Shown here: one piece after another, positions 1,390 to 51,046 of the stretch
Layout: every line of letters begins with the position of its first letter
Numbering within the stretch: position 1 is the stretch's first letter
Source: an uncultured Desulfobacteraceae bacterium
GTDB lineage: Bacteria; Desulfobacterota; DSM-4660; Desulfatiglandales; B25-G16
Length of the DNA: 64,000 nt
Reading direction: 5' to 3'
Assembly: GCA_964655655.1 (NCBI GenBank)
Contig: CAZZPR010000001.1
Coordinates: 2,633 to 66,632, forward strand
Program-made: the position numbers and the translations under genes
The notes under the pieces: model-generated
Told to the model about the DNA's origin: nothing
Seen by the model: only the letters and a program-made list of their open reading frames with translations
The model's database searches: none

Positions 1390-1614
1390 TCAAAATCGTT
1401 TATTCTCGGGCGATTTTGAGCTTCTGATACCCCTTATAATTTCCTTTTTTGCTCCACCAAATTTTTCGACGTTGGCATCATCCTCCGGGTCGGGGTCAGA
1501 GGTCCAATATGGGACCTGGTCAAGTGCATACGTAAGTTCTCTGTAAAAACACCCCGCCTCCTGGTAGCTGCCGTTGTACTCATCAAACTTAGCAATATCT
1601 TTGGTTTTGCCCAT
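1390..1614 (-). CDS. Hypothetical acidic 74-aa protein, downstream partner of the RHH gene
   Basis: ORF track entry. It lies 10 nt downstream of the RHH ORF on the same strand. No motif recognised. Confidence 0.4.
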   Translation of the reverse strand: MGKTKDIAKFDEYNGSYQEAGCFYRELTYALDQVPYWTSDPDPEDDANVEKFGGAKKEIIRGIRSSKSPENKRF

Positions 1615-1624
1615 TTTTCCCTCC

Positions 1625-1810
1625 TTATTGTCGTTGGTTAAGTGGTTGGTTTTGCTCCAAAAACTGCGTTATAGCCTCCTCAAAGAGCACAAATATAGGC
1701 ACGTTCTTTGCGGCGGCCATCATCCGGATCTGCCGCCATAACTCCGGGGCCATGGCGGTAGTTACCGGGGCTTTTTCCACATGTTTATGTCCTTTTTTGT
1801 TTCGGTTCAT
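1625..1810 (-). CDS. Ribbon-helix-helix (CopG/Arc-like) DNA-binding protein
   Basis: 61 aa. A basic N-terminus is followed by a beta-strand-like VTTAMAPELWRQIRMMAA and two helices (VPIFVLFEEAITQFLEQ), a typical RHH layout. Confidence 0.55.
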   Translation of the reverse strand: MNRNKKGHKHVEKAPVTTAMAPELWRQIRMMAAAKNVPIFVLFEEAITQFLEQNQPLNQRQ

Positions 1811-1846
1811 GATTTCCCTCCTTTTTAAATGCTTGTTTTTAACATA

Positions 1847-1893
1847 AAATCCTCATAAATTTCCAAGAAATCAATAATATTCAAACTACCTTC
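1847..1893. repeat. 47-bp segment 100% identical to 48864-48910 (inside the intact primase-helicase gene)
   Basis: aaatcctcataaatttccaagaaatcaataatattcaaactaccttc occurs at both sites in the same orientation. Here it is an insertion relative to the otherwise colinear but diverged alignment with 48380-48420. Confidence 0.9.
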
Positions 1894-1904
1894 ACATATT
1901 ATTA

Positions 1905-1975
1905 GTATTATTGGGGGGGGTTTAAGGGGGGGGGTATATAGGACCCTCCGAGAAAACCCGCTTTTTACTCCATTT
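1905..1975. other. Conserved origin-proximal block (G8-tttaa-G9, gtatataggaccc, aaacccgctttttactc) shared with 48408-48480
   Basis: Alignment by eye with the intact element: ttattgggggggg(t/-)tt(ta/ct)a(g)ggggggggtatataggaccc...aaaacccgctttttactc. Confidence 0.75.
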
Positions 1976-2027
1976 TTTAAAAAGTTGACACTCTTAATTG
2001 CTATAATTTTCAAGTGCTTAAGCTCTA

Positions 2028-2121
2028 AGTTGACATAGTTGACATAGTTGACATAAGTTGACATAAGTTGACATAAGTTGACATAAGTTGACAAAGTTGA
2101 CATAGTTGACATAGTTGACAT
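2028..2121. repeat. Iteron array: 10 tandem copies of AGTTGACAT(A), period 9-10 bp, plus a solitary copy at 1983-1991
   Basis: Read directly: aagttgacatagttgacatagttgacataagttgacataagttgacataagttgacataagttgacaaagttgacatagttgacatagttgacatg. It sits immediately 3' of the replicase fragment, the same position as the GTAAACA iterons of the intact element. Confidence 0.85.
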
Positions 2122-2125
2122 GAGT

Positions 2126-2283
2126 TTATTCTGTTCCCCACTCATCCGATTCGATTAATTTTGCCCCGGCTATGATCTTATATTTGATCCTTTTCCCCCT
2201 CGGGTTTTCCTTGGTTTTCCAGTTTTTCGCAGATACGATTTTTAACTCCCCACCTTCCAGGGCAAGCGCAAGCGGGAAGAGAA
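2126..2283 (-). pseudogene. C-terminal fragment (about 50 codons) of a primase-polymerase/helicase homologous to 48584-48740
   Basis: The reverse translation LALALEGGELKIVSAKNWKTKENPRGKRIKYKIIAGAKLIESDEWGTE* aligns with LALAMESGKLKIVSAKNWKTAENPRGKRINFKIIAGSKLIESDEWSMEE* of the intact gene. Homology ends near 2283 and no upstream coding part is present. Confidence 0.8.
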
Positions 2284-2415
2284 GAGCAGGGCAAATTTTC
2301 TTTGACTGGATTGCGTAAAATTGCCAATCAACCGCCAGAGGACAAAACCACCCAAACCCAAATACCTACTCAGCCAGGGCCAAAATAGGGATACCACTTA
2401 TCTATTTTTTCCATT

Positions 2416-2794: not shown

Positions 2795-3877
2795 ATGGCG
2801 ATACGAAAAAGAGGGCGAGGCTATCAGATTGATTATTATGATCCGAGTGGGAAGCGGATCAGGAAAAATTTTAAGAAAAAAAAAGACGCAGAGAATGAGC
2901 TGGCCGCAAGGAGGTTGGCAAAGGAGGATGGAAACTATTATGAGAAAAAGAGGACTTACACAGTTATCCTCAAAGAATTGCTCGAAAAATACAAAGAAAA
3001 TTACTGCAATCAGCGGAGTTGGGAAACTTACAAAAAATATGGAATCGAAAGCATAGAGGAATACTTCGGGAGGGATAGATGCCTTTCAGAAATACGTTAT
3101 ATCGATATTGAAACATATCAAAATCATTTAAGGAAAAAATTGACAAAAAGTGGAACCATAAGGAAAGAGGCCAGCATAAACCGGGAAATGGCTATTCTGC
3201 GCCACATGCTCAATAAAGCGGTTGAGTGGGATATGATGGAGAAAAGCCCATTTGATAGAGGAAAGAGTTTGCAACTAAAGGAGAATAATAAAAGGTTACG
3301 CTTTCTTTCCCATGAGGAAATCGAAAAACTCTTGCCGGAGTGTCCAACCTATCTCCGGCGGATTGTTGTTTGTGCCCTCAGCACCGGCATGAGGCGGGGA
3401 GAGATTCTAAGCCTAAAATGGGAGCAGATTAGGAACGGATTTATCTATCTCCAAAGGACCAAAACCAACGAGGGACGGGAAATTCCTATCAATGACACCC
3501 TCGAAGCGCTATTCGAAGAAATCCGCCAGGAAAGACATCTGAGATCAGAATATGTTTTTACTTACCAGGACCGGCCCTTACATGAGCTAAAAAGGGCCTT
3601 TGGAGGCGCTCTCAGAAGGGCAGGAATCCAGGACTTTAGATTTCACGATTTGCGCCACACCTTTGCGTCGCACCTGGTTATGAACGGGGCCTCTATCAAG
3701 GACGTACAAGAACTCCTGGGCCATAAAGACACCAAAATGACAAACAGGTACGCTCACCTAAGCCCGGAGCACAAAACAAAAGCGGTCAGGCTCCTTAATG
3801 ACCTGACCGCCTCCGCCAAACAAAATGGTCACAAAATGGTCACAAAATCGGAAACTAAAAAATCAAAAGTAAGCTAA
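2795..3877 (+). CDS. Tyrosine recombinase / phage-type integrase
   Basis: 360 aa. Catalytic-domain motifs are present: GMRRGEILSLKW (Arg), HDLRHTFASHLV (H-x-x-R) and LGHKDTKMTNRYAHL (His...Tyr). The gene ends 15 nt from the 3' end of tRNA-Ala. The RBS aggtga precedes the ATG. Confidence 0.9.
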   Translation: MAIRKRGRGYQIDYYDPSGKRIRKNFKKKKDAENELAARRLAKEDGNYYEKKRTYTVILKELLEKYKENYCNQRSWETYKKYGIESIEEYFGRDRCLSEIRYIDIETYQNHLRKKLTKSGTIRKEASINREMAILRHMLNKAVEWDMMEKSPFDRGKSLQLKENNKRLRFLSHEEIEKLLPECPTYLRRIVVCALSTGMRRGEILSLKWEQIRNGFIYLQRTKTNEGREIPINDTLEALFEEIRQERHLRSEYVFTYQDRPLHELKRAFGGALRRAGIQDFRFHDLRHTFASHLVMNGASIKDVQELLGHKDTKMTNRYAHLSPEHKTKAVRLLNDLTASAKQNGHKMVTKSETKKSKVS

Positions 3878-3891
3878 GGTGTTGATTTTAT

Positions 3892-3967
3892 TGGTGGAGC
3901 TGAGGGGGCTCGAACCCCTGACCTCATGACTGCCAGTCATGCGCTCTCCCATCTGAGCTACAGCCCC
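3892..3967 (-). tRNA. tRNA-Ala (anticodon GGC), CCA encoded
   Basis: The reverse complement GGGGCTGTAGCTCAGATGGGAGAGCGCATGACTGGCAGTCATGAGGTCAGGGGTTCGAGCCCCCTCAGCTCCACCA folds as a cloverleaf. The anticodon loop is CTGGCAG, and the G3:U70 Ala identity pair is present. Confidence 0.95.
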
Positions 3968-4163: not shown

Positions 4164-5624
4164 ATGATGACGAGACACAGTACTGTTTCTAAACCAATTA
4201 AAACCAATAAAGTTCTTTTGGTAAACCCCAATCAGATGAGACCACCTGTAGCCCCCCTGGGAATTGACTACCTTCACGGCGCACTGGAGGACCAGGGCTT
4301 CGAGGTGGAGCTTCTGGACCTTGCCTTTTCGGAAGACATGGAGGCGGATATCGGTAGGGTGTCCGAAGGAAATTATATATTTACCGGAGTAACCCTGCGA
4401 AACGTGGATGACTCATACCTTGCCAGCCAGGATTTTTGCCTGGCAAAAAGCCGGGAGATCATACAGCGTATAAGGGAGCTGTCCGGTTCCCCAGTAGTAT
4501 TGGGAGGGGTAGGGTTTTCCATATTCCCATTGGAGGTAATGGAGTATTGCGGCGCGGATTTTGGCGTATACGGAGACGGAGAGTCCGCGCTTCCTCGTCT
4601 GGCTGGTGCGCTCAGGGACGGTAAAGATTTTACCTCCATTCCGGGCCTTGTATACATGGCCGGCGATAAATACAGGATGAACAATCCGGATTTCACAGAC
4701 CTTAGGAAGGGAATTTACCGAAGAAGGCTCGTTGACAACCGCCGGTACTTTCGAGAGGGCGCAATGGTAGGTTTTGAGACCAAGAGAGGTTGCGACAGGC
4801 CGTGCATTTATTGCGCGGACCCGGTCGCCAGGGGCAGGCGGGTAAGGATGAGAGACCCTGAGGACGTTGCCCGGGAGCTTCAGGACCTTCTGGACATGGG
4901 CATAACCCATTTCCATACAGGGGACAGCGAGTTTAATCTTTCGGAGTCCCATGCAATGGATGTATGCCGGGCAATAATAGGTCGCGGACTGGGGGAAAAA
5001 ATCCGGTGGTACGCCTATTGCCTGCCGGTTCCCTTTTCCGAAGAGCTAGCAGGCCTAATGAGACGGGCCGGGTGCTCGGGAATAGACTTTACCGTGGATT
5101 CGGGCAATGATGAACAGCTTCGACGTCTGGGGCACCGGCACACTTCAGAGGATGTAAGAAACCTCTCCCTGGTCTGCCGGAGAAATAATTTTTCGGTTAT
5201 GTTTGATCTATTGATAGGAGGGCCCGGAGAGAACAGGGCATCAACCAGGGAAACACTGGAATTGATGAAAAACTCCGGGGACATAATGGTGGGGATCAGC
5301 CTGGGAGTAAGGCTTTATCCCCGCACAAAGCTGGGTTCCCTCGTCATTAAGCAGGGACTCGATAAAGGAAACCCCCATCTCAGGGGAACGGTAAACGGAA
5401 ATAAAGGCCTTTTGAGGCCCATATTTTATCTGTCTGCGGATGCAGGACCCGATATAGGCAGATATATATCGGATATTATAGACGGGGACCAAAGATTCTT
5501 CTTTGCAGCCAGGGACCAGGTTCCCCAGAACTATAACTACAACGAGAATTCCCGGCTCATGGATGCAATCAAGCAGGGATACCGAGGGGCATTCTGGGAT
5601 ATTCTAACCCGGATTGTTCAGTAG
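4164..5624 (+). CDS. B12-binding-domain radical SAM protein
   Basis: 486 aa. The N-terminal VLLVNPNQ...PLGIDYL segment fits a cobalamin-binding-domain pattern. The CxxxCxxC cluster motif is KRGCDRPCIYCAD. Confidence 0.8.
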   Translation: MMTRHSTVSKPIKTNKVLLVNPNQMRPPVAPLGIDYLHGALEDQGFEVELLDLAFSEDMEADIGRVSEGNYIFTGVTLRNVDDSYLASQDFCLAKSREIIQRIRELSGSPVVLGGVGFSIFPLEVMEYCGADFGVYGDGESALPRLAGALRDGKDFTSIPGLVYMAGDKYRMNNPDFTDLRKGIYRRRLVDNRRYFREGAMVGFETKRGCDRPCIYCADPVARGRRVRMRDPEDVARELQDLLDMGITHFHTGDSEFNLSESHAMDVCRAIIGRGLGEKIRWYAYCLPVPFSEELAGLMRRAGCSGIDFTVDSGNDEQLRRLGHRHTSEDVRNLSLVCRRNNFSVMFDLLIGGPGENRASTRETLELMKNSGDIMVGISLGVRLYPRTKLGSLVIKQGLDKGNPHLRGTVNGNKGLLRPIFYLSADAGPDIGRYISDIIDGDQRFFFAARDQVPQNYNYNENSRLMDAIKQGYRGAFWDILTRIVQ

Positions 5625-5681
5625 CCGGCTGCTGCAAAATGCGGGCTTACCACGAGACCTTGCACAACTCATCTTCTTAAA

Positions 5682-5802
5682 TCCAGATTGTGCAGCAGCC
5701 AACTACCGCGGCCTGAAAAACCTTGCTGTAACGCTCTTTTCGCAATTCGCGTTTCGCTTGGGTTTTTCAACCCTCGCTACGATGTCTACCGCACAATCTG
5801 GG
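5682..5802. mobile_element. MITE-like palindromic repeat, short copy (121 bp), flanked by TTAAA on both sides
   Basis: The terminal inverted repeats are tccagattgtgc...gcacaatctggg. It is the reverse complement of 40627-40800 minus a 53-bp central segment. TTAAA lies at 5677-5681 and 5803-5807. Confidence 0.65.
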
Positions 5803-6216
5803 TTAAAAGAAATACCACCGTGTCCGGCATGCCCGAAATATTCGGGGTTTACTCATGGGAGTCTTTAGTCTTTAAAATTTTTTTAAATCCCGAATATGAG
5901 GGCACACGCTTTAAGGCCAGTAGATATTGCCTTGAGGAAATGGGCAGGTCTTTGGGGAGGAGGGGTGCCTATTAGCAATTAGGATTCTAAATAATAAACA
6001 GAAAAGCAGGAAAAGACCTTCGCCTCGTTCGGCCTGGAGGCTATAGACAGGCTCCGGCTTAGCCGAGCTAGTTGCGGGCCCCCGGTTTCTGCAAAAAACG
6101 CCAGTATCTTTTTTGAAAGACAAAAATTGTAATGTTTGCAAAGTCTCAACCCGGGAAGGATGAATTTTCCGGCTTTTTTGCCCGTGCTTTTTTCAGGCAA
6201 GGCTAAAATTTTATTT

Positions 6217-9200
6217 CTAAGCCAGTATATCTTTTATTTTTCCGGAAAGCTCTGCAATGTTAAAGGGCTTTTGTATAAAGCCGTTACATCCATTCTGCAG
6301 TATAATGTTTGAATGGCCGTTGAGGGAGTATCCGCTTGCAAGCAGGACCCTTGCACCGGGGTCGATTTCCTTTATCTTGTCGAAAGCCTCGGTGCCGCTC
6401 ATCTCCGGCATTATCATATCCAGAATTACCAGGTCTATACTGTTTTTTTCTTTTTGAAAAATTTCTACCCCTTCTTTTCCGCTATTGGCTACCAGCACGT
6501 TATAACCCAGTCTTTTTAACATCGCACAGCCCACCTCGGCAACCAGTTCCTCGTCGTCTACAATAAGAATAGTGCCCTCGCCCTTTTGAATGCCTTTTTC
6601 TTTCGGTCCTTTAGAGGCTTTTAAAAAAGGAGACCCAACCGCGGGCAGGTAAATATTAAAGGTGGCTCCTTTGCCTTTTTCGCTGTATACGTTTATGGTT
6701 CCCCCGTGGTTCTTAATTATTCCGTAGACAGAGGAAAGGCCCAATCCGGTGCCCCTGCCCATTTCTTTTGTAGTAAAAAACGGATCGAATATCTTCTGAA
6801 GGGTTTCCTCGTCCATTCCCTCCCCGTTGTCTGTAACGGATATCCTTACATAATTGCCCGGATTCATTCCAAGGGGATCGAGATAGTCTTTTTCAAGAAC
6901 CACGTTTGCCGTCTGAAGATACAAGTTTCCCCCTTGCTCCATAGCCTGCCAGGCATTCACAAAGAGATTCATGAGCACCTGTTCCATTTGGCCCTGATCC
7001 GCCTTAACCGGCCATAAGTTTTTCTTGTATTTCCTGTGTATTTTTATTTCCTTTTTGGCCCGGGAGAAAATATCCGAGGATCTTGTTATGATCTCGTTTA
7101 TATTAACCACCTGTTTGTTGTGCATTCCGCCCCTTGCAAAGCCCAGGAGCTGCGAGGAAAGGTTCGCCCCGGATCGAACCTGGTCTTCCACGCGCTTTAA
7201 TTTTGTATGAAGCGGGTCTTCCGGGTCTATATCCATAAGCATCAGGGAGACATAGCCCTGGATACCCATAAGCAGGTTGTTGAAGTCGTGGGCTATCCCT
7301 CCGGCCAGAGTACCTATGGACTCCATCCTCTGGGCATGCTGAAGCTGTGCTTCCAGTTTGTGTGCCTCCGTTATATCCCTGGCTGTGATTGCGAGGCCGG
7401 AGATTGTGCCGTCCTCTTCATAATAAGGGTAAAAGGCTATGTCCAGGTATCTCTTGCCCGTCGCTGCGAAATTGAACCACTCTTTATAATGGACTTCCTC
7501 CCCTGCAAGGCAGCGGTCCATCTGGTTCTTTATCTTTTCTTCAAAGACATCCTGGCCCAAAAATTCCGGGACGGTATGACCCAAAACCTCTTCCTTGGTT
7601 TTTTTATGCCAGCTAAGGTAGGCATCGTTTACTGTTATGTATGTGTAATTTTTGTCAACAAGGTAGATAAGCTCCCTTGTAGCGGAAGTTATGCGCTTAT
7701 ATCTTCTGAGTTTTTCCTCGTTATTCTTCCGGTCCGTAATGTCGATAAGGGCCACCTGGGCCGCGGGTTTTCCCCGGTATTCCACCCGGCTTGCAAAGGC
7801 CTCAACCCACCTGACGGAACCGTCCTTGCGTATCACCCGGAATTCATATCTCTGGGGCATGTCGCCGCCTTTCACCCGTGCATGGTAACGGCCCCATACC
7901 ATTTGGCGGTCTTCCGGGTGTACCAGGCCCCTTACCTTCTCCGGCGAAAGGGAAAGGAGCTCGTCTTCAGTGTATCCCAAAATCTTTGCATAAACATCGT
8001 TTACGAATACCTCGCGGTCATCCTGCAGGATATGCAGGCCCTGAAGGGAACGCTCCATGACGGAGATATACCCTTCCTCGGCGTTTTTTCTCTCCGTTAT
8101 ATCCGAAATAAAACAAAGGGCGGCTGGCCTCTCCTCCCAGGAGAACAAAACCACATTTATTTCCACCCACTTGATATTTCCCTGTTTGCCTATGATCCTA
8201 AAGGGGTAGAAACTGGGAAGCTTTTCACCCTTGAGTCTTTTCCAGTGCCGCTCTTCCACGAGTTTTCTTTCGTCCTTGTGTATGAAACTCTTTAGATCCC
8301 TGGAGGCGAGTTCTTGACGTGAATAACCGAATACCTGCTCGGCCTTGGCGTTTGCGAATTTGAATACACCGTCCTGGGCCACCAGGATGGCCTCGTTAGC
8401 GTTTTCCACAAGGGTATGGTATTTTTCCTCGCTGTTTCTAAGGGCCTTTTCGGATACTTTTTTATCCGTTATATCAAAAAATGAGGACATGACGCTGATG
8501 GGACTTCCGGTTTCATCCCTTATAACAGTGGCAAAAATATGTACATCAAAAACGGAGCCGTCTATTCTTCTTGCCCTGAGCTCTCCTATCCATTTTCCTG
8601 AGCTTAAAAGTTTCTGGAGTCTTTTCGAGGCCTCTTGGCTGGATTCCCAAAATTCAGTTACGTGCCTTCCAAGGACCCCTTTCCTGTCCTTGCAACCCCA
8701 GGAACTTAAAAAAGAGGGATTTGCATAAGTGATTATCCCGTCCAGGTCAGCAATGATAAAGCAGTTTGCCGAGGCCTCCAGTGCGGCTTCCTTTATCCGG
8801 GTTTCCTCTGTAAAATAACCGCGGTCCGTTGTGTCGCGGACCATGTTAATGGCACCCAGGATGTTTCCATGATTATCCAGAACAGGTTCCGCATTTATTT
8901 CCCAGGTTTTTCCACCGGGGGTGGTTAGAAATTTATGATCGGGTTGTCCGGTGTTTATGACATTGAGAACCGGGCATTCCTTGCAGGGCTCATTCAGGCC
9001 GTGCCATAATCTGTAACATCTGGAGCCCCGCAATTTTCCGGGGGATTTGCCCACGAAAAGGCCCGTCGCCTTGTTGGCCCACTGCACGGAAAGGTCCCTG
9101 TCCAGAAATACCACCATGTCCCTTATTGCATTGAGGATGGCCTTTTTTTCCGCCTCGGATTTGCGCAGTGCTTCATCCGCCTGGCCCATTGGGACTATCA

Positions 9201-29186: not shown

Positions 29187-29335
29187 TTATACTTCCCTTA
29201 CCAATAATCTCCCATTGGGGCCTGAAGAGATTTTATTTTAACCCTTTATCGGTTTTTTAAGGGCTTCCCGAAACAATAAAAACTTTCCTTAAATGTAATT
29301 AAACATTTAACAAATAGAATTCAAGCTACTTTTAA

Positions 29336-29357
29336 CCCAGATTGTGCAGTAGACATC
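29336..29357. repeat. Solo terminal fragment (22 nt) of the MITE-like repeat
   Basis: cccagattgtgcagtagacatc matches the first 22 nt of the copy at 40627 with one mismatch. The similarity then ends. Confidence 0.6.
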
Positions 29358-40250: not shown

Positions 40251-40626
40251 GTTTTCCCTGTTTTAAAAACCGGTAATTGAGAAGTTAAAAATAATTTATA
40301 TGGCATAAAATATCAAGTAGCTTAAACATAAAACATTGTGGGAGCAAAATATAACGGCAAGGTTTTGATTTGACAAATTTCTGAATTGACCGTAAATTCA
40401 AATAGGATGGCAGGTTTTAAAAACCTGGAAGACTTTGTTGCATTTAAATAAATATGGGTTATGCAAAGGTGACGGACTCGAAAAAAGCTGGTTTATGCCG
40501 CAAGCGGCATCCTATGAGCAACGAACTTTATTAACACTTCGAGTTAAGTTCGTTAGAAGTCGAAGGTCTGGATTTTATTTTGCCTTTAGCTGTTTATCGG
40601 GTTTTCCATGCCATTAGAATTTTAAA

Positions 40627-40800
40627 CCCAGATTGTGCGGTAGACATCGTAGCGAGGGTTGAAAAACCCAAGCGAAGCGCGAATTTGGAGCAATTTTGAA
40701 CCGCAGGCATATTCATAAATATGTTGAGGATCAAAATTGCGAAAAGAGCGTTGCAGCAAGGTTTCTCAGGCCGCAGTGGTTGGCAGCTGCACAATCTGGG
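40627..40800. mobile_element. MITE-like palindromic repeat, long copy (174 bp), flanked by TTAAA on both sides
   Basis: The ends are cccagattgtgc...gcacaatctggg. It is inverted relative to 5682-5802 and carries an extra 53-bp centre bounded by aatt microhomology, containing the hairpin catattcataaatatg. TTAAA lies at 40622-40626 and 40801-40805. Confidence 0.65.
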
Positions 40801-40822
40801 TTAAAGATAAAGGGGTGATATA

Positions 40823-42318: not shown

Positions 42319-42367
42319 TTATTGTTCCACCGAAAGGATAATCAACTACTAAAAATCAGTTAACAAT

Positions 42368-42440
42368 GCCGAGATAGCTCAGTAGGTAGAGCAGGGGACT
42401 GAAAATCCCCGTGTCCGCAGTTCGAATCTGCGTCTCGGCA
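42368..42440 (+). tRNA. tRNA-Phe (GAA); its 3' part is supplied by the integrated element (attL)
   Basis: The sequence is GCCGAGATAGCTCAGTAGGTAGAGCAGGGGACTGAAAATCCCCGTGTCCGCAGTTCGAATCTGCGTCTCGGCA. The anticodon loop is CTGAAAA. CCA is not encoded. Confidence 0.95.
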
Positions 42441-42444
42441 TACA
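42399..42444 (+). repeat. attL: 46-bp direct repeat (anticodon loop to 3' end of tRNA-Phe plus 4 nt)
   Basis: ctgaaaatccccgtgtccgcagttcgaatctgcgtctcggcataca is identical to 50957-51002. The flanking bases differ on both sides. Confidence 0.95.
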
Positions 42445-42468
42445 GAAAAAGGCAAAAGATTAAAGGGG

Positions 42469-43572
42469 TTAGCCGTCATTGCGGTTAGCCTCTTTTTTCT
42501 TAAAATTGCCGATTGTAACTAATTTTGTAACTAATTTTTCATTTTCAATATATTTTTCTTGCCTTTCCGCAGCCTCTTTTAAATCATTATCGGAGATAAT
42601 ATCATAGCGGTCAAATACGCTTCGACTTCTGTGTCCTGATATTTTCATAGCGGTATGCTCAGAAATTCCACTTCTAACCATATTTCTAACAGCGGTTCTT
42701 CTAAAATCATGAAAAATCTTGTTGCCTATGCCAGCTTCTTTACAGGCTTTCAACCAGGTCTTTCTAAAATCCCTAATTCTTTCGTTTCCTTTGCGATTTA
42801 AAAATACATAGGGAATAACCTTGCCGGCATGTTTTCTTCGCTCCTGGAGGCCCTCAAAAGCTCTTATAAGCTCTTTATCAAGGTATACAGTCCGGCCTCT
42901 ACCATTTTTAGTAGTCCCCGGCTCAAGCCTTACAATGCCTTGTCTAAGGTCAACTTGATTCCAGGTCAAACTGCTGATCTCTTCTTTTCGCCAACCAGTC
43001 TTATAGGCAAAAGTGCAAAAGCTTCTAAGATATTCTGGCAAAGCATTTTTTAAAGCCATATATTCTGCATATTCAAAAAAACCTTTGCGTGTATTATTTT
43101 CTGTAAGCATTTTAATAACAGGAACCTGGCTCATATCTACTTTTGGTGGTCGTTTTTTGGCTCCAAGATGAAATATTCTCTTTAAGGCGGATAATTCCCG
43201 GTTTATGGTAGCGTTTTTGGCTCCCTCGACCTTTCTGTGCTCGATATATCCCCGAATATGCGCATCTGTTATTTGTGTAATTTTCATCCCCCCGAAAAAG
43301 CCTTCTAAATGGTCTATACGCTTTTGGGCCTCTGTTGTACCTTGATTGTTTATTTGCCGATCCCATAGAAAGTCTTGAACCAATTCCCCAAAGTCTATCC
43401 GGTCAAAAACAACCCCGGGCAATTTGCCCCTTTGGATTTCACCCTCACGTTTCTTCAAAAGCTCCTGGGCAACCATCTTTTTTGAAGATCCCGAACTCTC
43501 GCAGTGGGCCTTCCTGTTGGAATAGTACTTGATCCAAAAAATGCTTCCTCGTTTGTAAATGCTTCCCATCAT
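42469..43572 (-). CDS. Tyrosine recombinase / phage-type integrase
   Basis: The start is at ATGATG after the RBS aggggg (MMGSIYKRGSIFWIKYY...). Motifs are GWRKEEISSLTW (Arg), HDFRRTAVRNMV (H-x-x-R) and SGHRSRSVFDRYDI (His...Tyr). Confidence 0.9.
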   Translation of the reverse strand: MMGSIYKRGSIFWIKYYSNRKAHCESSGSSKKMVAQELLKKREGEIQRGKLPGVVFDRIDFGELVQDFLWDRQINNQGTTEAQKRIDHLEGFFGGMKITQITDAHIRGYIEHRKVEGAKNATINRELSALKRIFHLGAKKRPPKVDMSQVPVIKMLTENNTRKGFFEYAEYMALKNALPEYLRSFCTFAYKTGWRKEEISSLTWNQVDLRQGIVRLEPGTTKNGRGRTVYLDKELIRAFEGLQERRKHAGKVIPYVFLNRKGNERIRDFRKTWLKACKEAGIGNKIFHDFRRTAVRNMVRSGISEHTAMKISGHRSRSVFDRYDIISDNDLKEAAERQEKYIENEKLVTKLVTIGNFKKKEANRNDG

Positions 43573-43792
43573 TTCCCCCTTTCTGCTTTTAGAGCATAAA
43601 AAAAGCCGTAAGACTTGCCAGGCGTACAAATATCCCCTGATGCCTCACGGCGGTCAGCATCTTACGGCTATATTTATTTATTGCTATCATTTTATACCTT
43701 TTGGCAATCTCTATACTTATACATAAACCCTTACATGCTATATGTCAATAAAAAATATTGCTTTTTTCTATATTCCATTGTAAAAAGCTTTT

Positions 43793-47869: not shown

Positions 47870-48310
47870 TTATCCACCGTTCTCAGCCAAAGACAATTTC
47901 TTCTCAAGCTCCCTTATGTACTTCGACAAAAGACTTTCAACCATCCGTGCCCCGTACTTCCGGTTTTCGCAAAAGAAAACAGGCAGCCTATATCTGACAG
48001 AAAAGGCCAAAAGGCTTTGAATCGCTGACTTTGAGCTCATTTGCGAGCGATAATGGCCGTTTACGAAGTCTGATAACCTCGCCTCTACAACCAAGGCAAA
48101 GTAGTCAAGGGCCCGGCCTTTGTGCAGCTCCTTTTCAAAGCGTTCACGGCCAGCAGTCAAACACCCTATAAGGTCGTTAAGCTCTTTCCGCTCGATAGCA
48201 ATATGATCTTCAAGGCCGGAAATAGAATAATCACCTACAGGTATTGCTCCTGTCTCCGAATCTTTAAATTCATACGGATGCTGTTCTCTGGTATCTATTT
48301 TAATTTTCAT
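47870..48310 (-). CDS. ERCC4/XPF-Mus81-type nuclease domain protein
   Basis: 146 aa. Motifs are DTREQ and GDYSISGLEDHIAIERKELNDL, which gives the ERCC4 signature GDxn-ERKxxxD. Confidence 0.8.
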   Translation of the reverse strand: MKIKIDTREQHPYEFKDSETGAIPVGDYSISGLEDHIAIERKELNDLIGCLTAGRERFEKELHKGRALDYFALVVEARLSDFVNGHYRSQMSSKSAIQSLLAFSVRYRLPVFFCENRKYGARMVESLLSKYIRELEKKLSLAENGG

Positions 48311-48407
48311 GGCTTTCGGCCCTTGAGCTTTGTCATGGTTTTCCTATTAGCAAGCTTATCTCAACCCCCCGCCTTTTAATGCTTGTTTTTGTTACACACA
48401 TATTAGT

Positions 48408-48480
48408 AGTTTTTTATTGGGGGGGGTTCTAGGGGGGGGTATATAGGACCCGACCAAAAAACCCGCTTTTTACTCTATTT
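48408..48480. other. Conserved origin-proximal block (G8-ttcta-G8, gtatataggaccc, aaacccgctttttactc)
   Basis: It is colinear with 1905-1975 of the remnant element. Confidence 0.75.
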
Positions 48481-48532
48481 TTCATGAAAATTACCATCAA
48501 AATTATTTGCAATATCAATTAATTAGCTAATA

Positions 48533-48579
48533 AGTAAACAAAGTAAACAAAGTAAACATTAGTAAACATTAGTAAACAT
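48533..48579. repeat. Iteron array: 5 tandem copies of AGTAAACA, period 9-10 bp, ending 5 nt from the replicase stop codon
   Basis: The sequence is agtaaacaaagtaaacaaagtaaacattagtaaacattagtaaacata. Confidence 0.85.
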
Positions 48580-48583
48580 AAGC

Positions 48584-50137
48584 TCACTCCTCCATGCTCC
48601 ATTCATCCGATTCGATCAGCTTTGATCCGGCTATGATCTTAAAATTAATTCTTTTGCCCCTCGGATTCTCCGCAGTTTTCCAATTTTTTGCCGATACGAT
48701 CTTAAGCTTTCCACTTTCCATGGCAAGTGCAAGCCGGGCTTTTTCAATACTGCCCTCTCCGCCAAATGCGAAGTCCCGTGCCTGGGGTTTTTGCAAAGCA
48801 ATAATGGCTACAGCCCCATCCAGTTTTTGCCAGATTTCAGCTATCCGCTTTTTCACCAACCAGAAATCCTCATAAATTTCCAAGAAATCAATAATATTCA
48901 AACTACCTTCTCCTGGTACGATAACATCATGAAAATTTCGATCTCTTTCATAAAATTTAACTTGCCGCCATCTTTCAAAATCAAAATCGAATAACTCACA
49001 TCGTGCCCGAAGTTCCCCGCCACCCATTTCAGAGCTAAAATAGTGCACATTGAATTTGTCCATATTGTCAGCCGCAATATTCAGGAGAAACGCTGTCTTT
49101 CCTGCATCCTTGGAACCGGATACAACTATCACATTGCCCGGCATAATCTGAACCATACCGCTAACTCCGAGCGGCAAAGTAATATCAACTAATCTGGTTT
49201 CGGTATCAAAAAGATTTATTTTAGTAACATCCCGCTCGATCCTTCGAAAACATCCTGTCCGCCTTCCTGCTCGCTCGATCAACCCTTCTGAGACCAATCT
49301 GGTCAAAATTATCGAAACTTTTTGTTTCTGCTCCTTTGGAATATCCAATATCTCAAAAACGTCTCTTGTTAAAAATTCGCCTTCGGTAGTCCCAATCCAA
49401 TCCCGGATTTTTTGAGTAAAATTTCGGCCACCTGCATTTAGTCTTTTGAAAGCAGATTCAACTTTTACAACCACTTCCTTTTCAGGGAAGGGCGGCTTGC
49501 AACTCCCGGCAAATTGACAAACAGCAGCTTGCACCTCTTCCTTGGGCATGCCCCCTTTGGCCAGGCTCAGGGCCATATGAAAAAGCGAATCATCACGCGT
49601 ACCTTTAGAAAAGTTTAAATTCTGCTTGGTGGATGCTTCGGGGGGCTCTTTTCTGAGCAAATCTTTAATGGTTCCGGGTAAATAGGCAAGTCCAACTTCG
49701 TTTAGGCTTAAACCAGCCATCCATGAGTAGCCTCTACTGGGCGGTGCTACGATGTACCCGCCGTCGCCTCGAAAATCACAATCCTTGAGAAACCCCGTAC
49801 CGTTGCCGGTGCCGTTTTCGGCCTTAAAGTAAAAATGCCAGCCGCCACGAGGAGTCCTGGTAGTTGGTGTCAAAAGGCTGTCCGGCAAGAGTTCCTCCAA
49901 ATTCTCGAGACCTTCCCGAGAATCCACATCAACAACATTGACCCCCGAAACATTACCCGTGACAATCCCAATATTTGCTTCGGGCCAATTCCCCCACCAG
50001 TCCCGGATCAACCGCTCAGATGCTTTTTCTTTCTGAAATTTTTCCCACTTCAAATAGGGCTTTTTGTCAGCTCGAACCGGGATCACGGAAAAACCCATTT
50101 TCTTGTATTTTAAAGCGGTTTCCAACTTATCATCCAT
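48584..50137 (-). CDS. Bifunctional primase-polymerase (Prim-Pol) / P-loop helicase-type replicase
   Basis: 517 aa. The N-terminal Prim-Pol motifs are GFSVIPV, NVVDVDSREG and GGWHFYF. The C-terminal half has the Walker A SGSKDAGKTAF and the Walker B SLNIIDFLE. Confidence 0.85.
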   Translation of the reverse strand: MDDKLETALKYKKMGFSVIPVRADKKPYLKWEKFQKEKASERLIRDWWGNWPEANIGIVTGNVSGVNVVDVDSREGLENLEELLPDSLLTPTTRTPRGGWHFYFKAENGTGNGTGFLKDCDFRGDGGYIVAPPSRGYSWMAGLSLNEVGLAYLPGTIKDLLRKEPPEASTKQNLNFSKGTRDDSLFHMALSLAKGGMPKEEVQAAVCQFAGSCKPPFPEKEVVVKVESAFKRLNAGGRNFTQKIRDWIGTTEGEFLTRDVFEILDIPKEQKQKVSIILTRLVSEGLIERAGRRTGCFRRIERDVTKINLFDTETRLVDITLPLGVSGMVQIMPGNVIVVSGSKDAGKTAFLLNIAADNMDKFNVHYFSSEMGGGELRARCELFDFDFERWRQVKFYERDRNFHDVIVPGEGSLNIIDFLEIYEDFWLVKKRIAEIWQKLDGAVAIIALQKPQARDFAFGGEGSIEKARLALAMESGKLKIVSAKNWKTAENPRGKRINFKIIAGSKLIESDEWSMEE

Positions 50138-50176: not shown

Positions 50177-50566
50177 TTAGTATTGCTTTATCCCCGGCGG
50201 AAGCAGTGGCTTAGCTGACTCCGCTCCTGCCCGAGCATAGATCCTAAGCAGCCGCAAAGGGTCGCCTGTCCTGGAATCGCTTGCGATAGCTCTTTGCGAA
50301 AAATTCAAAACAGCTTGCAAAGGATAATTTTTTGCAAGGCCGGAGATCAGAAAAATAACCTCCTGTCTTTGCAAATCGTTAAGCTTTAGACGCCAATCGA
50401 CTCGAGAATCCAGCGTTTTTTCAAGATTTATCATGGCTGCCAGATCAAGCTGCCGAATCCCTGACTCATATTCCGATATATAAGGCGTCGGTATACCGAC
50501 TCTTTCTGCCAAAGCTCTTTGATTCAGCCCTGTTTTTTCTCGTATCTCCTTTAGTGTCAAAATCAT
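50177..50566 (-). CDS. XRE-family helix-turn-helix regulator
   Basis: The start is at MILTLKEIREKTGLNQRALAERVGIPTPYISEYESG, after the RBS ggagg. The longer ORF (to 50599) is less likely. Confidence 0.8.
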   Translation of the reverse strand: MILTLKEIREKTGLNQRALAERVGIPTPYISEYESGIRQLDLAAMINLEKTLDSRVDWRLKLNDLQRQEVIFLISGLAKNYPLQAVLNFSQRAIASDSRTGDPLRLLRIYARAGAESAKPLLPPGIKQY

Positions 50567-50956
50567 TTGTACCTCCAAAAAAAAGGGCCACCTTCGCAAA
50601 GTCGAAAATCTCTTTACGAAAATGGCCCTGATTAGCCGTGGGTCAGTCTTTTATTCCAAGCCCGGACACTGCCTGCCCTTAAATTTTAATTATACTATAA
50701 AAATTAAAAATTTAAAAGTCAAGAAAAAAGTTCAAGATATTGAATTTTTTTTGCCTGCCTACACAACATCTTGACAAGCTTCCTTATTTTGCATCTTTTA
50801 AAAAAATGTAGCTAAACTGTAGCTAAATTGTAACCATTACTAACCAAAAAAGACCTAAATTGACCACTATAAACCGCATTAAAAGATTTTGCTAAGTTTT
50901 TGTTAAAATTGAAAAAATACGTATTTCCAACAACTTGCAAAAAAGCCTGATTTGGT

Positions 50957-51002
50957 CTGAAAATCCCCGTGTCCGCAGTTCGAATCTGCGTCTCGGCATA
51001 CA
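50957..51002 (+). repeat. attR: 46-bp direct repeat (orphan 3' part of the original tRNA-Phe)
   Basis: It is identical to 42399-42444. No tRNA 5' half precedes it. Confidence 0.95.
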
Positions 51003-51008
51003 AGGAAA

Positions 51009-51046
51009 GGGGGCTTAGCCAAAATTATTGGCTGCCCCCTTTTTTT
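51009..51046 (+). terminator. Rho-independent terminator immediately after attR (ancestral tRNA-Phe terminator)
   Basis: gggggc-tt-agcc aaaattatt ggct-gccccc is followed by tttttttg. Confidence 0.7.

Follow-up and report, generated by a model that had tools for sequence, protein, structure and literature searches.

Filler DNA and NUMT capture occur in eukaryotes. In bacteria, 5′ protruding ends are filled in during nonhomologous end joining (NHEJ) by Ku and LigD, and genomic breaks can take up heterologous fragments in the process (PMC6379672). We analyzed a 47-bp sequence that is present twice in a 64,000-nucleotide stretch of DNA (the window), once inside the replicase gene of an intact integrative element and once in the leader of a second, decayed element. 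The copy in the decayed element resembles the filler capture described in Sinorhizobium meliloti (PMC6379672) in that a short fragment from a distant donor lies at a nonhomologous site, the junctions are blunt and lack microhomology, and the flanks carry a putative duplication of the kind expected from filled 5′ overhangs. It differs in that the donor was not transforming DNA but a sibling element resident in the same cell, in that we infer the mechanism from one natural scar, and in that no Ku/LigD genes were seen in the 64-kb window.

CRISPR spacer acquisition similarly inserts pieces of mobile elements, tens of bases long, into a chromosome with duplication of the target. However, no repeats, leader, or cas genes lie near the 47-bp insert, where the only tandem array consists of iterons; the duplication is 5 bp and not a full repeat; and there is a single insert, which lies inside the leader of another mobile element. 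Plasmid incompatibility and copy control, through counter-transcript RNAs or cloned iterons, also involve a piece of a replicon carried by a related replicon in the same cell. There, the piece consists of iterons, a leader, or an antisense region, whereas here it is internal coding sequence, in the sense orientation, with no promoter and not conserved in relatives. We also considered a TR/VR pair of a diversity-generating retroelement and rejected it, as there are zero differences between the two copies and thus none at adenines; no RT domain was detected among the element ORFs scanned.

The two elements and their relatives

As in PICI/SaPI elements and pRN1, the integrase of the intact element adjoins a tRNA att site. 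The tyrosine integrase gene (42469–43629, minus strand) is next to tRNA-Phe (42367–42441), and the two copies of a 57-bp att repeat (42396–42452 and 50954–51010) are 93% identical. PICI/SaPI elements also share the order of a regulator, a fused primase/helicase initiator, an iteron origin directly 3′ of it, and downstream genes in the same direction (PMC6092414). In the intact element, we find an XRE-type regulator (50177–50599), a 517-aa replicase (48584–50137, minus strand), 5.5 iteron copies of ATAAGTAAAC (48530–48582), a conserved G-tract block (48419–48475), and an ERCC4-type nuclease gene (47870–48310). Unlike in PICI/SaPI elements, no packaging or phage-interference genes were recognized, and there is one iteron array with a G/C-tract block, as opposed to two iteron sets flanking an AT-rich region. 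The replicase has PriCT_1 and DnaB-like helicase domains together with a Prim-Pol domain whose relative is pRN1 ORF904, and the pRN1 origin also lies just downstream of the replicase gene. The nuclease is 69% identical to that of the related locus L001 (6092–6520) and is conserved cargo downstream of the origin in the element family.

More than 1,300 relatives of the replicase were found, many on IMG/VR contigs; those with names come mostly from Desulfobacterota-type MAGs. The best full-length match is 62% identical. Many relatives (for example, L021, L045, and L058–L074) contain the helicase half only, with matches that begin at about residue 215–240, and some, such as P0074, have a different N terminus in place of the Prim-Pol domain.

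The decayed element, which we call the remnant, lies near the left end of the window. Its tyrosine integrase gene (2795–3877, plus strand) adjoins tRNA-Ala (3892–3967, minus strand). All that is left of its replicase gene is the C-terminal ~50 codons (2127–2290, minus strand, ending in ...KIIAGAKLIESDEWGTE*), and homology to the intact gene ceases near 2285–2290. As in the intact element, iterons directly follow the replicase stop codon; the remnant contains 10.6 copies of TAAGTTGACA (2026–2126). Beyond these are a G-tract block (1913–1970; G8, G9, TATATAGGACCC, and AAAACCCGCTTTTTACTC), which is a candidate origin core or leader promoter, and the leader that contains the insert. The first gene downstream of this leader encodes a 61-aa RHH-type protein and is preceded by a GGAGG ribosome-binding site (1625–1810, minus strand). 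It is followed by a 74-aa ORF for which no family assignment was found (1390–1614, minus strand). A further minus-strand ORF (MSLLSEFQRRREWIVPRRDQKNPNGYVRLREAHFKNFLRHAARKGF...) has its start at 224 and extends past the left end of the window; it has no Pfam match at its present length. Since this replicase-origin-RHH module is directed away from the integrase and toward the ORF at 224, the remnant may be a rearranged or inverted module, or the region may comprise two elements that are head to head.

Between the replicase remnant and the integrase start are a 44-bp palindrome (C9 TTTA G10 flanked by GTTTCCAAC and GTTGGAAAC), a perfect 40-bp direct repeat, and several GTTTCCAA motifs (2479–2522, 2561–2600, 2657–2696, and 2624–2724), which may be arm-type sites or binding sites for regulators. 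A 9-mer shared with these repeats, TTTCCAAGA, is at chance level. The window also contains an intergenic repeat family that is unrelated to both elements, consisting of two inverted ~130-bp copies that are 90%–97% identical (5675–5808 and 40621–40807) and a 29-bp fragment at a third site (29329–29357).

Searching with the 48-aa C terminus of the remnant replicase yielded no candidates. Exact-protein look-ups of the RHH protein, the replicase, P0012, P0121, and P0122 matched no record. The RHH protein returned an identical protein and one relative (P0122, 84% identical), and a scan of viral contigs revealed no RHH relative. A 312-aa N-terminal replicase fragment (P0012) is 80% identical to the intact replicase. 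P0012 and P0122 each come from a 10,593-bp NCBI contig, in all likelihood the same one, which may be a circularly permuted intact sister element with both replicase and RHH modules and would be the best reference for the leader before the insertion.

Identity, position, and age of the 47-bp insert

By direct string comparison, positions 1847–1893 in the remnant match 48864–48910 in the intact element at 47 of 47 bases, with both copies in the same orientation. The identity stops abruptly on both sides: the match extends by 0 bases at either end, and the 12 bases beyond each end match at chance level. A search of both strands of the 64-kb window revealed these two copies of the 47-mer, ~47 kb apart, and no others (blastn E-value within the window, 5e-17). 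When positions 1–2800 were compared with the rest of the window, it was the longest exact match; the next longest, of 20, 18, and 15 bp, all fall within the conserved origin block. A chance origin of the match is excluded.

The copy in the intact element is native to the replicase gene. The reverse complement of the 47-mer translates to EGSLNIIDFLEIYED(F), which corresponds to replicase codons 410–425 (E410–F425, EGSLNIIDFLEIYEDF; 48864–48910, minus strand), and the insert (1847–1893, minus strand) is an exact, replicase-sense copy of these codons. In an alignment of 32 sequences, this peptide coincides with [ILV]NI[IV]D[FY]LE (NIIDFLEI here), which is conserved more strongly than any other block in the family. 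Since the block is collinear in all homologues, with no indel, the segment belongs where it is found in the replicase. Profile matches to DnaB structures cover the helicase core that adjoins the block, and the block itself resembles the DnaB Walker-B/H2 motif. A 106-aa ORF in the remnant (1825–2145, minus strand) also reads the insert in the replicase frame, but we judged it to be spurious because it runs through the iterons and C-tracts and lacks a ribosome-binding site.

To place the insert, we compared the leaders of four diverged elements: the remnant, the intact element, and the L001 and L021 types. All share one layout, consisting in the replicase-sense direction of the replicase stop codon, iterons, an AT-rich stretch, GGGTTTT-N10-11-CTATATACCCCCCC, a second C-tract 5–6 nt beyond CTATATACCCCCCC, a short leader, and the start codon of the next gene. 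The remnant leader, between the G-tract block and the RHH start codon, is collinear with that of the intact element on both sides of the insert. Extra sequence is present in the remnant only and is exactly the 47-mer; no insert interrupts the leaders of the other three. Thus, with the intact element as reference, the 47-mer was inserted into the remnant leader. A pattern scan for the origin block in metagenomes and viral contigs recovered the L001 type, the L021 type, and one chance match, none with a leader insert.

The comparison yielded several observations on the origin itself. The origin block (1913–1970, 48419–48475, L001 ~5086–5130, and L021 ~6461–6505) is strongly conserved, noncoding, and downstream of the iterons. 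It does not fit the sigma-70 consensus used in our promoter scan, and in one metagenome variant (L006/L091) the sequence that separates the C-tracts is missing. The iteron cores of the remnant (2026–2126), the intact element (48530–48582), L001 (~4975–5020), L021, and L045 have the form TATG-NNN-ACT and differ in the central three bases only. The remnant and L045 share TCA, and the intact element, L001, and L021 have TTT, ACA, and ATA, respectively. This pattern suggests a simple specificity code that covaries with the replicase C terminus. The remnant contains about twice as many iteron copies as the intact element (10.6 versus 5.5).

The DNA around the insert is far more diverged than the insert. 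The flanking homologous regions (1893–2276 and 48397–48737) are 68% identical, and the replicase C-terminal remnant is ~77% identical to the intact gene in DNA and 84% identical in protein. The initial annotation of this region had described a perfect 47-base identity in the same orientation, derived from replicase coding sequence and placed ectopically between much diverged flanks, and our analyses bear out each of these points. It had also proposed looking for the same 47-mer in other genomes; exact scans of viral, genome, and metagenome collections gave no match, and the scar is known from a single instance.

One explanation offered at that time, patchy gene conversion, is at odds with the sequence. 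The recipient site and the donor flanks are not homologous, the identity ends abruptly, and the patch is ectopic, in a leader as opposed to mid-replicase, rather than at the orthologous position within homologous flanks. We also rejected the reverse event, in which the intact gene was converted by the 47-bp copy, because that copy lacks flanking homology, and aberrant excision after integration at a secondary site, because the segment is far from the attP of the element.

In 171 loci that encode a related replicase, the homologous 47 bases are identical to the insert at no more than 38 of 47 positions. Synonymous codons replace one another freely in the motif (AAT/AAC, ATT/ATC/ATA, and TTG/TTA/CTG are examples), indicating that it is under no constraint at the DNA level. 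The probability of a 47/47 match is ~5e-6 at 77% identity and 0.007 at 90% identity. Together, the limited identity in the 171 loci and these small probabilities indicate that the insert is a direct copy of the intact replicase gene, or of a nearly identical one, and not a product of shared ancestry. With 0 differences in 47 bp, divergence since copying is at most ~6% (95% bound), versus 23%–32% in the flanks, which indicates that the copying was recent relative to the split of the two elements.

A different source would be the remnant's own deleted replicase gene, if that gene was a mosaic that was identical to its sibling here and the fragment moved ~300 bp in the breakage that truncated the gene at ~2290. 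Such a local donor is mechanistically easy, and the remnant is clearly rearranged, with its replicase cut to ~50 codons and its module directed away from the integrase. Moreover, its replicase C terminus is the closest known relative of the intact one (84% identical in amino acids). However, the surviving part of the gene, which ends ~120 bp from the position homologous to the 47-mer, has a DNA identity of ~77%. Since a 47/47 match is improbable across the range of 77%–90% identity (5e-6 to 7e-3), this origin requires an unobserved recombination boundary within 120 bp, and we regard it as doubtful.

Junctions and origin of the insert

The plus strand across the insert reads ...GTTTTTA-ACATA-[47 bp]-ACATA-TTATTAG.... 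The two ACATA repeats (1842–1846 and 1894–1898) form a putative 5-bp target-site duplication; in the intact element, ACATA occurs once at the corresponding position (48398–48402). The probability that a 5-bp flanking repeat arises by chance is ~0.001–0.002. The remaining leader is 25 nt long with both ACATA copies and 20 nt long with one, versus 28 nt in the intact element. The length with both copies is thus the closer to that of the intact element, and since the two leaders cannot be aligned unambiguously at this point, the ACATA pair could be ancestral sequence rather than a duplication. The remnant G-tract block begins 14 bp from the right ACATA repeat.

The donor flanks (...CCAACCAG on one side and TCCTGG... 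on the other) have no terminal bases in common with the target on either strand. We found no microhomology at any of the four possible junctions, where all terminal bases are mismatched, and no similarity between the mid-gene donor flanks and the recipient leader. A restriction site common to both donor ends was also looked for, and none was found.

These junctions bear on whether the insert could be an artefact of assembly or sequencing. The source contig is probably derived from a metagenome, and no second assembly was found that could confirm the insert. However, the insert is embedded in a collinear leader and bordered by a 5-bp repeat, and the donor and target flanks share no more than 5 bp, leaving no k-mer that could mislead a graph assembler, so that reads spanning the junctions must exist. 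An assembly chimera is therefore unlikely, and we give the artefact explanation as a whole very little weight.

We propose that the insert is probably the product of a one-off illegitimate insertion, likely neutral, in which end joining at a staggered break took up a piece of the sibling element. In this mechanism, a short double-stranded fragment of the sibling would be captured at a staggered double-strand break in the remnant leader; excision and replication of the intact element, or its degradation, would make such fragments abundant. At both ends, the 5-nt 5′ overhangs (ACATA/TATGT) would be filled in, and the fragment would be blunt-ligated between the filled-in ends, an outcome of Ku/LigD-type end joining with capture of filler or heterologous DNA. 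If this reading is correct, the two preserved junctions reveal the mode of repair as blunt joining after fill-in. The breakage history of the remnant fits a repair scar. An event of this type is of an already known kind; it involves no new mechanism and settles no open question.

The main rival is a replicative template switch, which the initial annotation had also raised. Template switches normally use 2–5 nt of microhomology. In a FoSTeS/MMBIR-like event, a fork would have stalled at the G8 and G9 tracts of the remnant and copied 47 nt from the sibling replicase gene, and the ACATA repeats would have arisen when the nascent strand returned 5 nt behind its point of departure. Two long G-tracts, a possible replication obstacle, do lie at a distance of 14 bp from the insert, which is short and has a precise template, and a strand that rejoined slightly upstream would leave what looks like a target-site duplication. 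FoSTeS, MMBIR, and Pol-theta-type end joining likewise produce short, exact copies of distant sequence, and here such a copy lies beside a likely replication obstacle. Yet the hallmark of these processes, microhomology at the junctions, is absent: terminal microhomology is zero at both departure and return, on either strand, at all four possible junctions. In addition, the donor is 47 kb distant or on an excised circle. A template switch thus keeps a place among the explanations without its hallmark, and we consider it unlikely.

Function and consequences of the insert

The insert adds 52 nt to the leader and leaves the ribosome-binding site and the RHH ORF untouched. A consensus scan detected neither a promoter made by the insert nor a promoter-like site for an antisense transcript, and scans for promoters and terminators revealed none that the insert creates. 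The folding energy of the 146-nt leader is −17.8 kcal/mol, compared with a mean of −21.2 for shuffled sequences (z = +1.0), and is thus no better than that of shuffled sequence; the 8-bp hairpin that the insert forms with the AT-rich flank is nothing out of the ordinary. Rfam matches in the window are limited to tRNAs.

We also compared non-replicase DNA with all replicase genes, first in 86 loci and then in 171 related loci (1.5 Mb). The insert in the window was the sole genuine ectopic match. Nothing points to selection on the insert, and from the absence of signals, the insert is most likely without function.

The initial annotation had speculated that the sequence might be selected at the nucleic-acid level, for example with RNA from the remnant pairing with the replicase mRNA or DNA of the sibling. 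More broadly, the sequence could be maintained because leader RNA or DNA acts on the replicase gene, transcript, or regulator of the sibling, or because it serves as an anchor for RecA-mediated co-integration. The perfect identity and the position in a probable transcribed leader, beside the origin block, would be consistent with such roles, and 47 bp suffices for low-level homologous recombination. However, the insert, the replicase gene, and the RHH operon are all on the minus strand, so a leader transcript would be replicase-sense and unable to pair with replicase mRNA. The lack of an antisense promoter and of a stable structure, the absence of comparable snippets in any other of the 171 loci, and the unconstrained synonymous sites of the motif across the family also argue against a function, while perfect identity is expected of any recent neutral event. 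Moreover, if the two direct copies recombined with each other, 47 kb containing six tRNA genes would be lost. We consider maintenance for a nucleic-acid function very improbable. Thus, from the first interpretation of this locus, the identity, the ectopic insertion, and the diverged flanks stand; gene conversion falls, and RNA pairing is weakened.

In its most specific form, the functional explanation would make the 47-bp tag a working device, either an anchor for co-integration or hitchhiking on the excised, replicating sibling, or a sense-RNA or DNA decoy that perturbs expression of the sibling replicase. We give this scarcely any credence. If true, such an anchor or decoy would let related integrative elements interact through sequence-specific cross-talk of a new type.

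If capture by end joining is the correct reading, the locus is a clean natural case of nonhomologous capture of sibling DNA in an uncultured Desulfobacterota-type bacterium. It also carries a caution, in that perfect short ectopic identity inside diverged mobile DNA is not, on its own, a sign of selection. The 47-bp direct repeat left by the event could mediate rare deletion or co-integration. The same reading would mean that DNA fragments pass physically between two integrative elements that reside in one cell.
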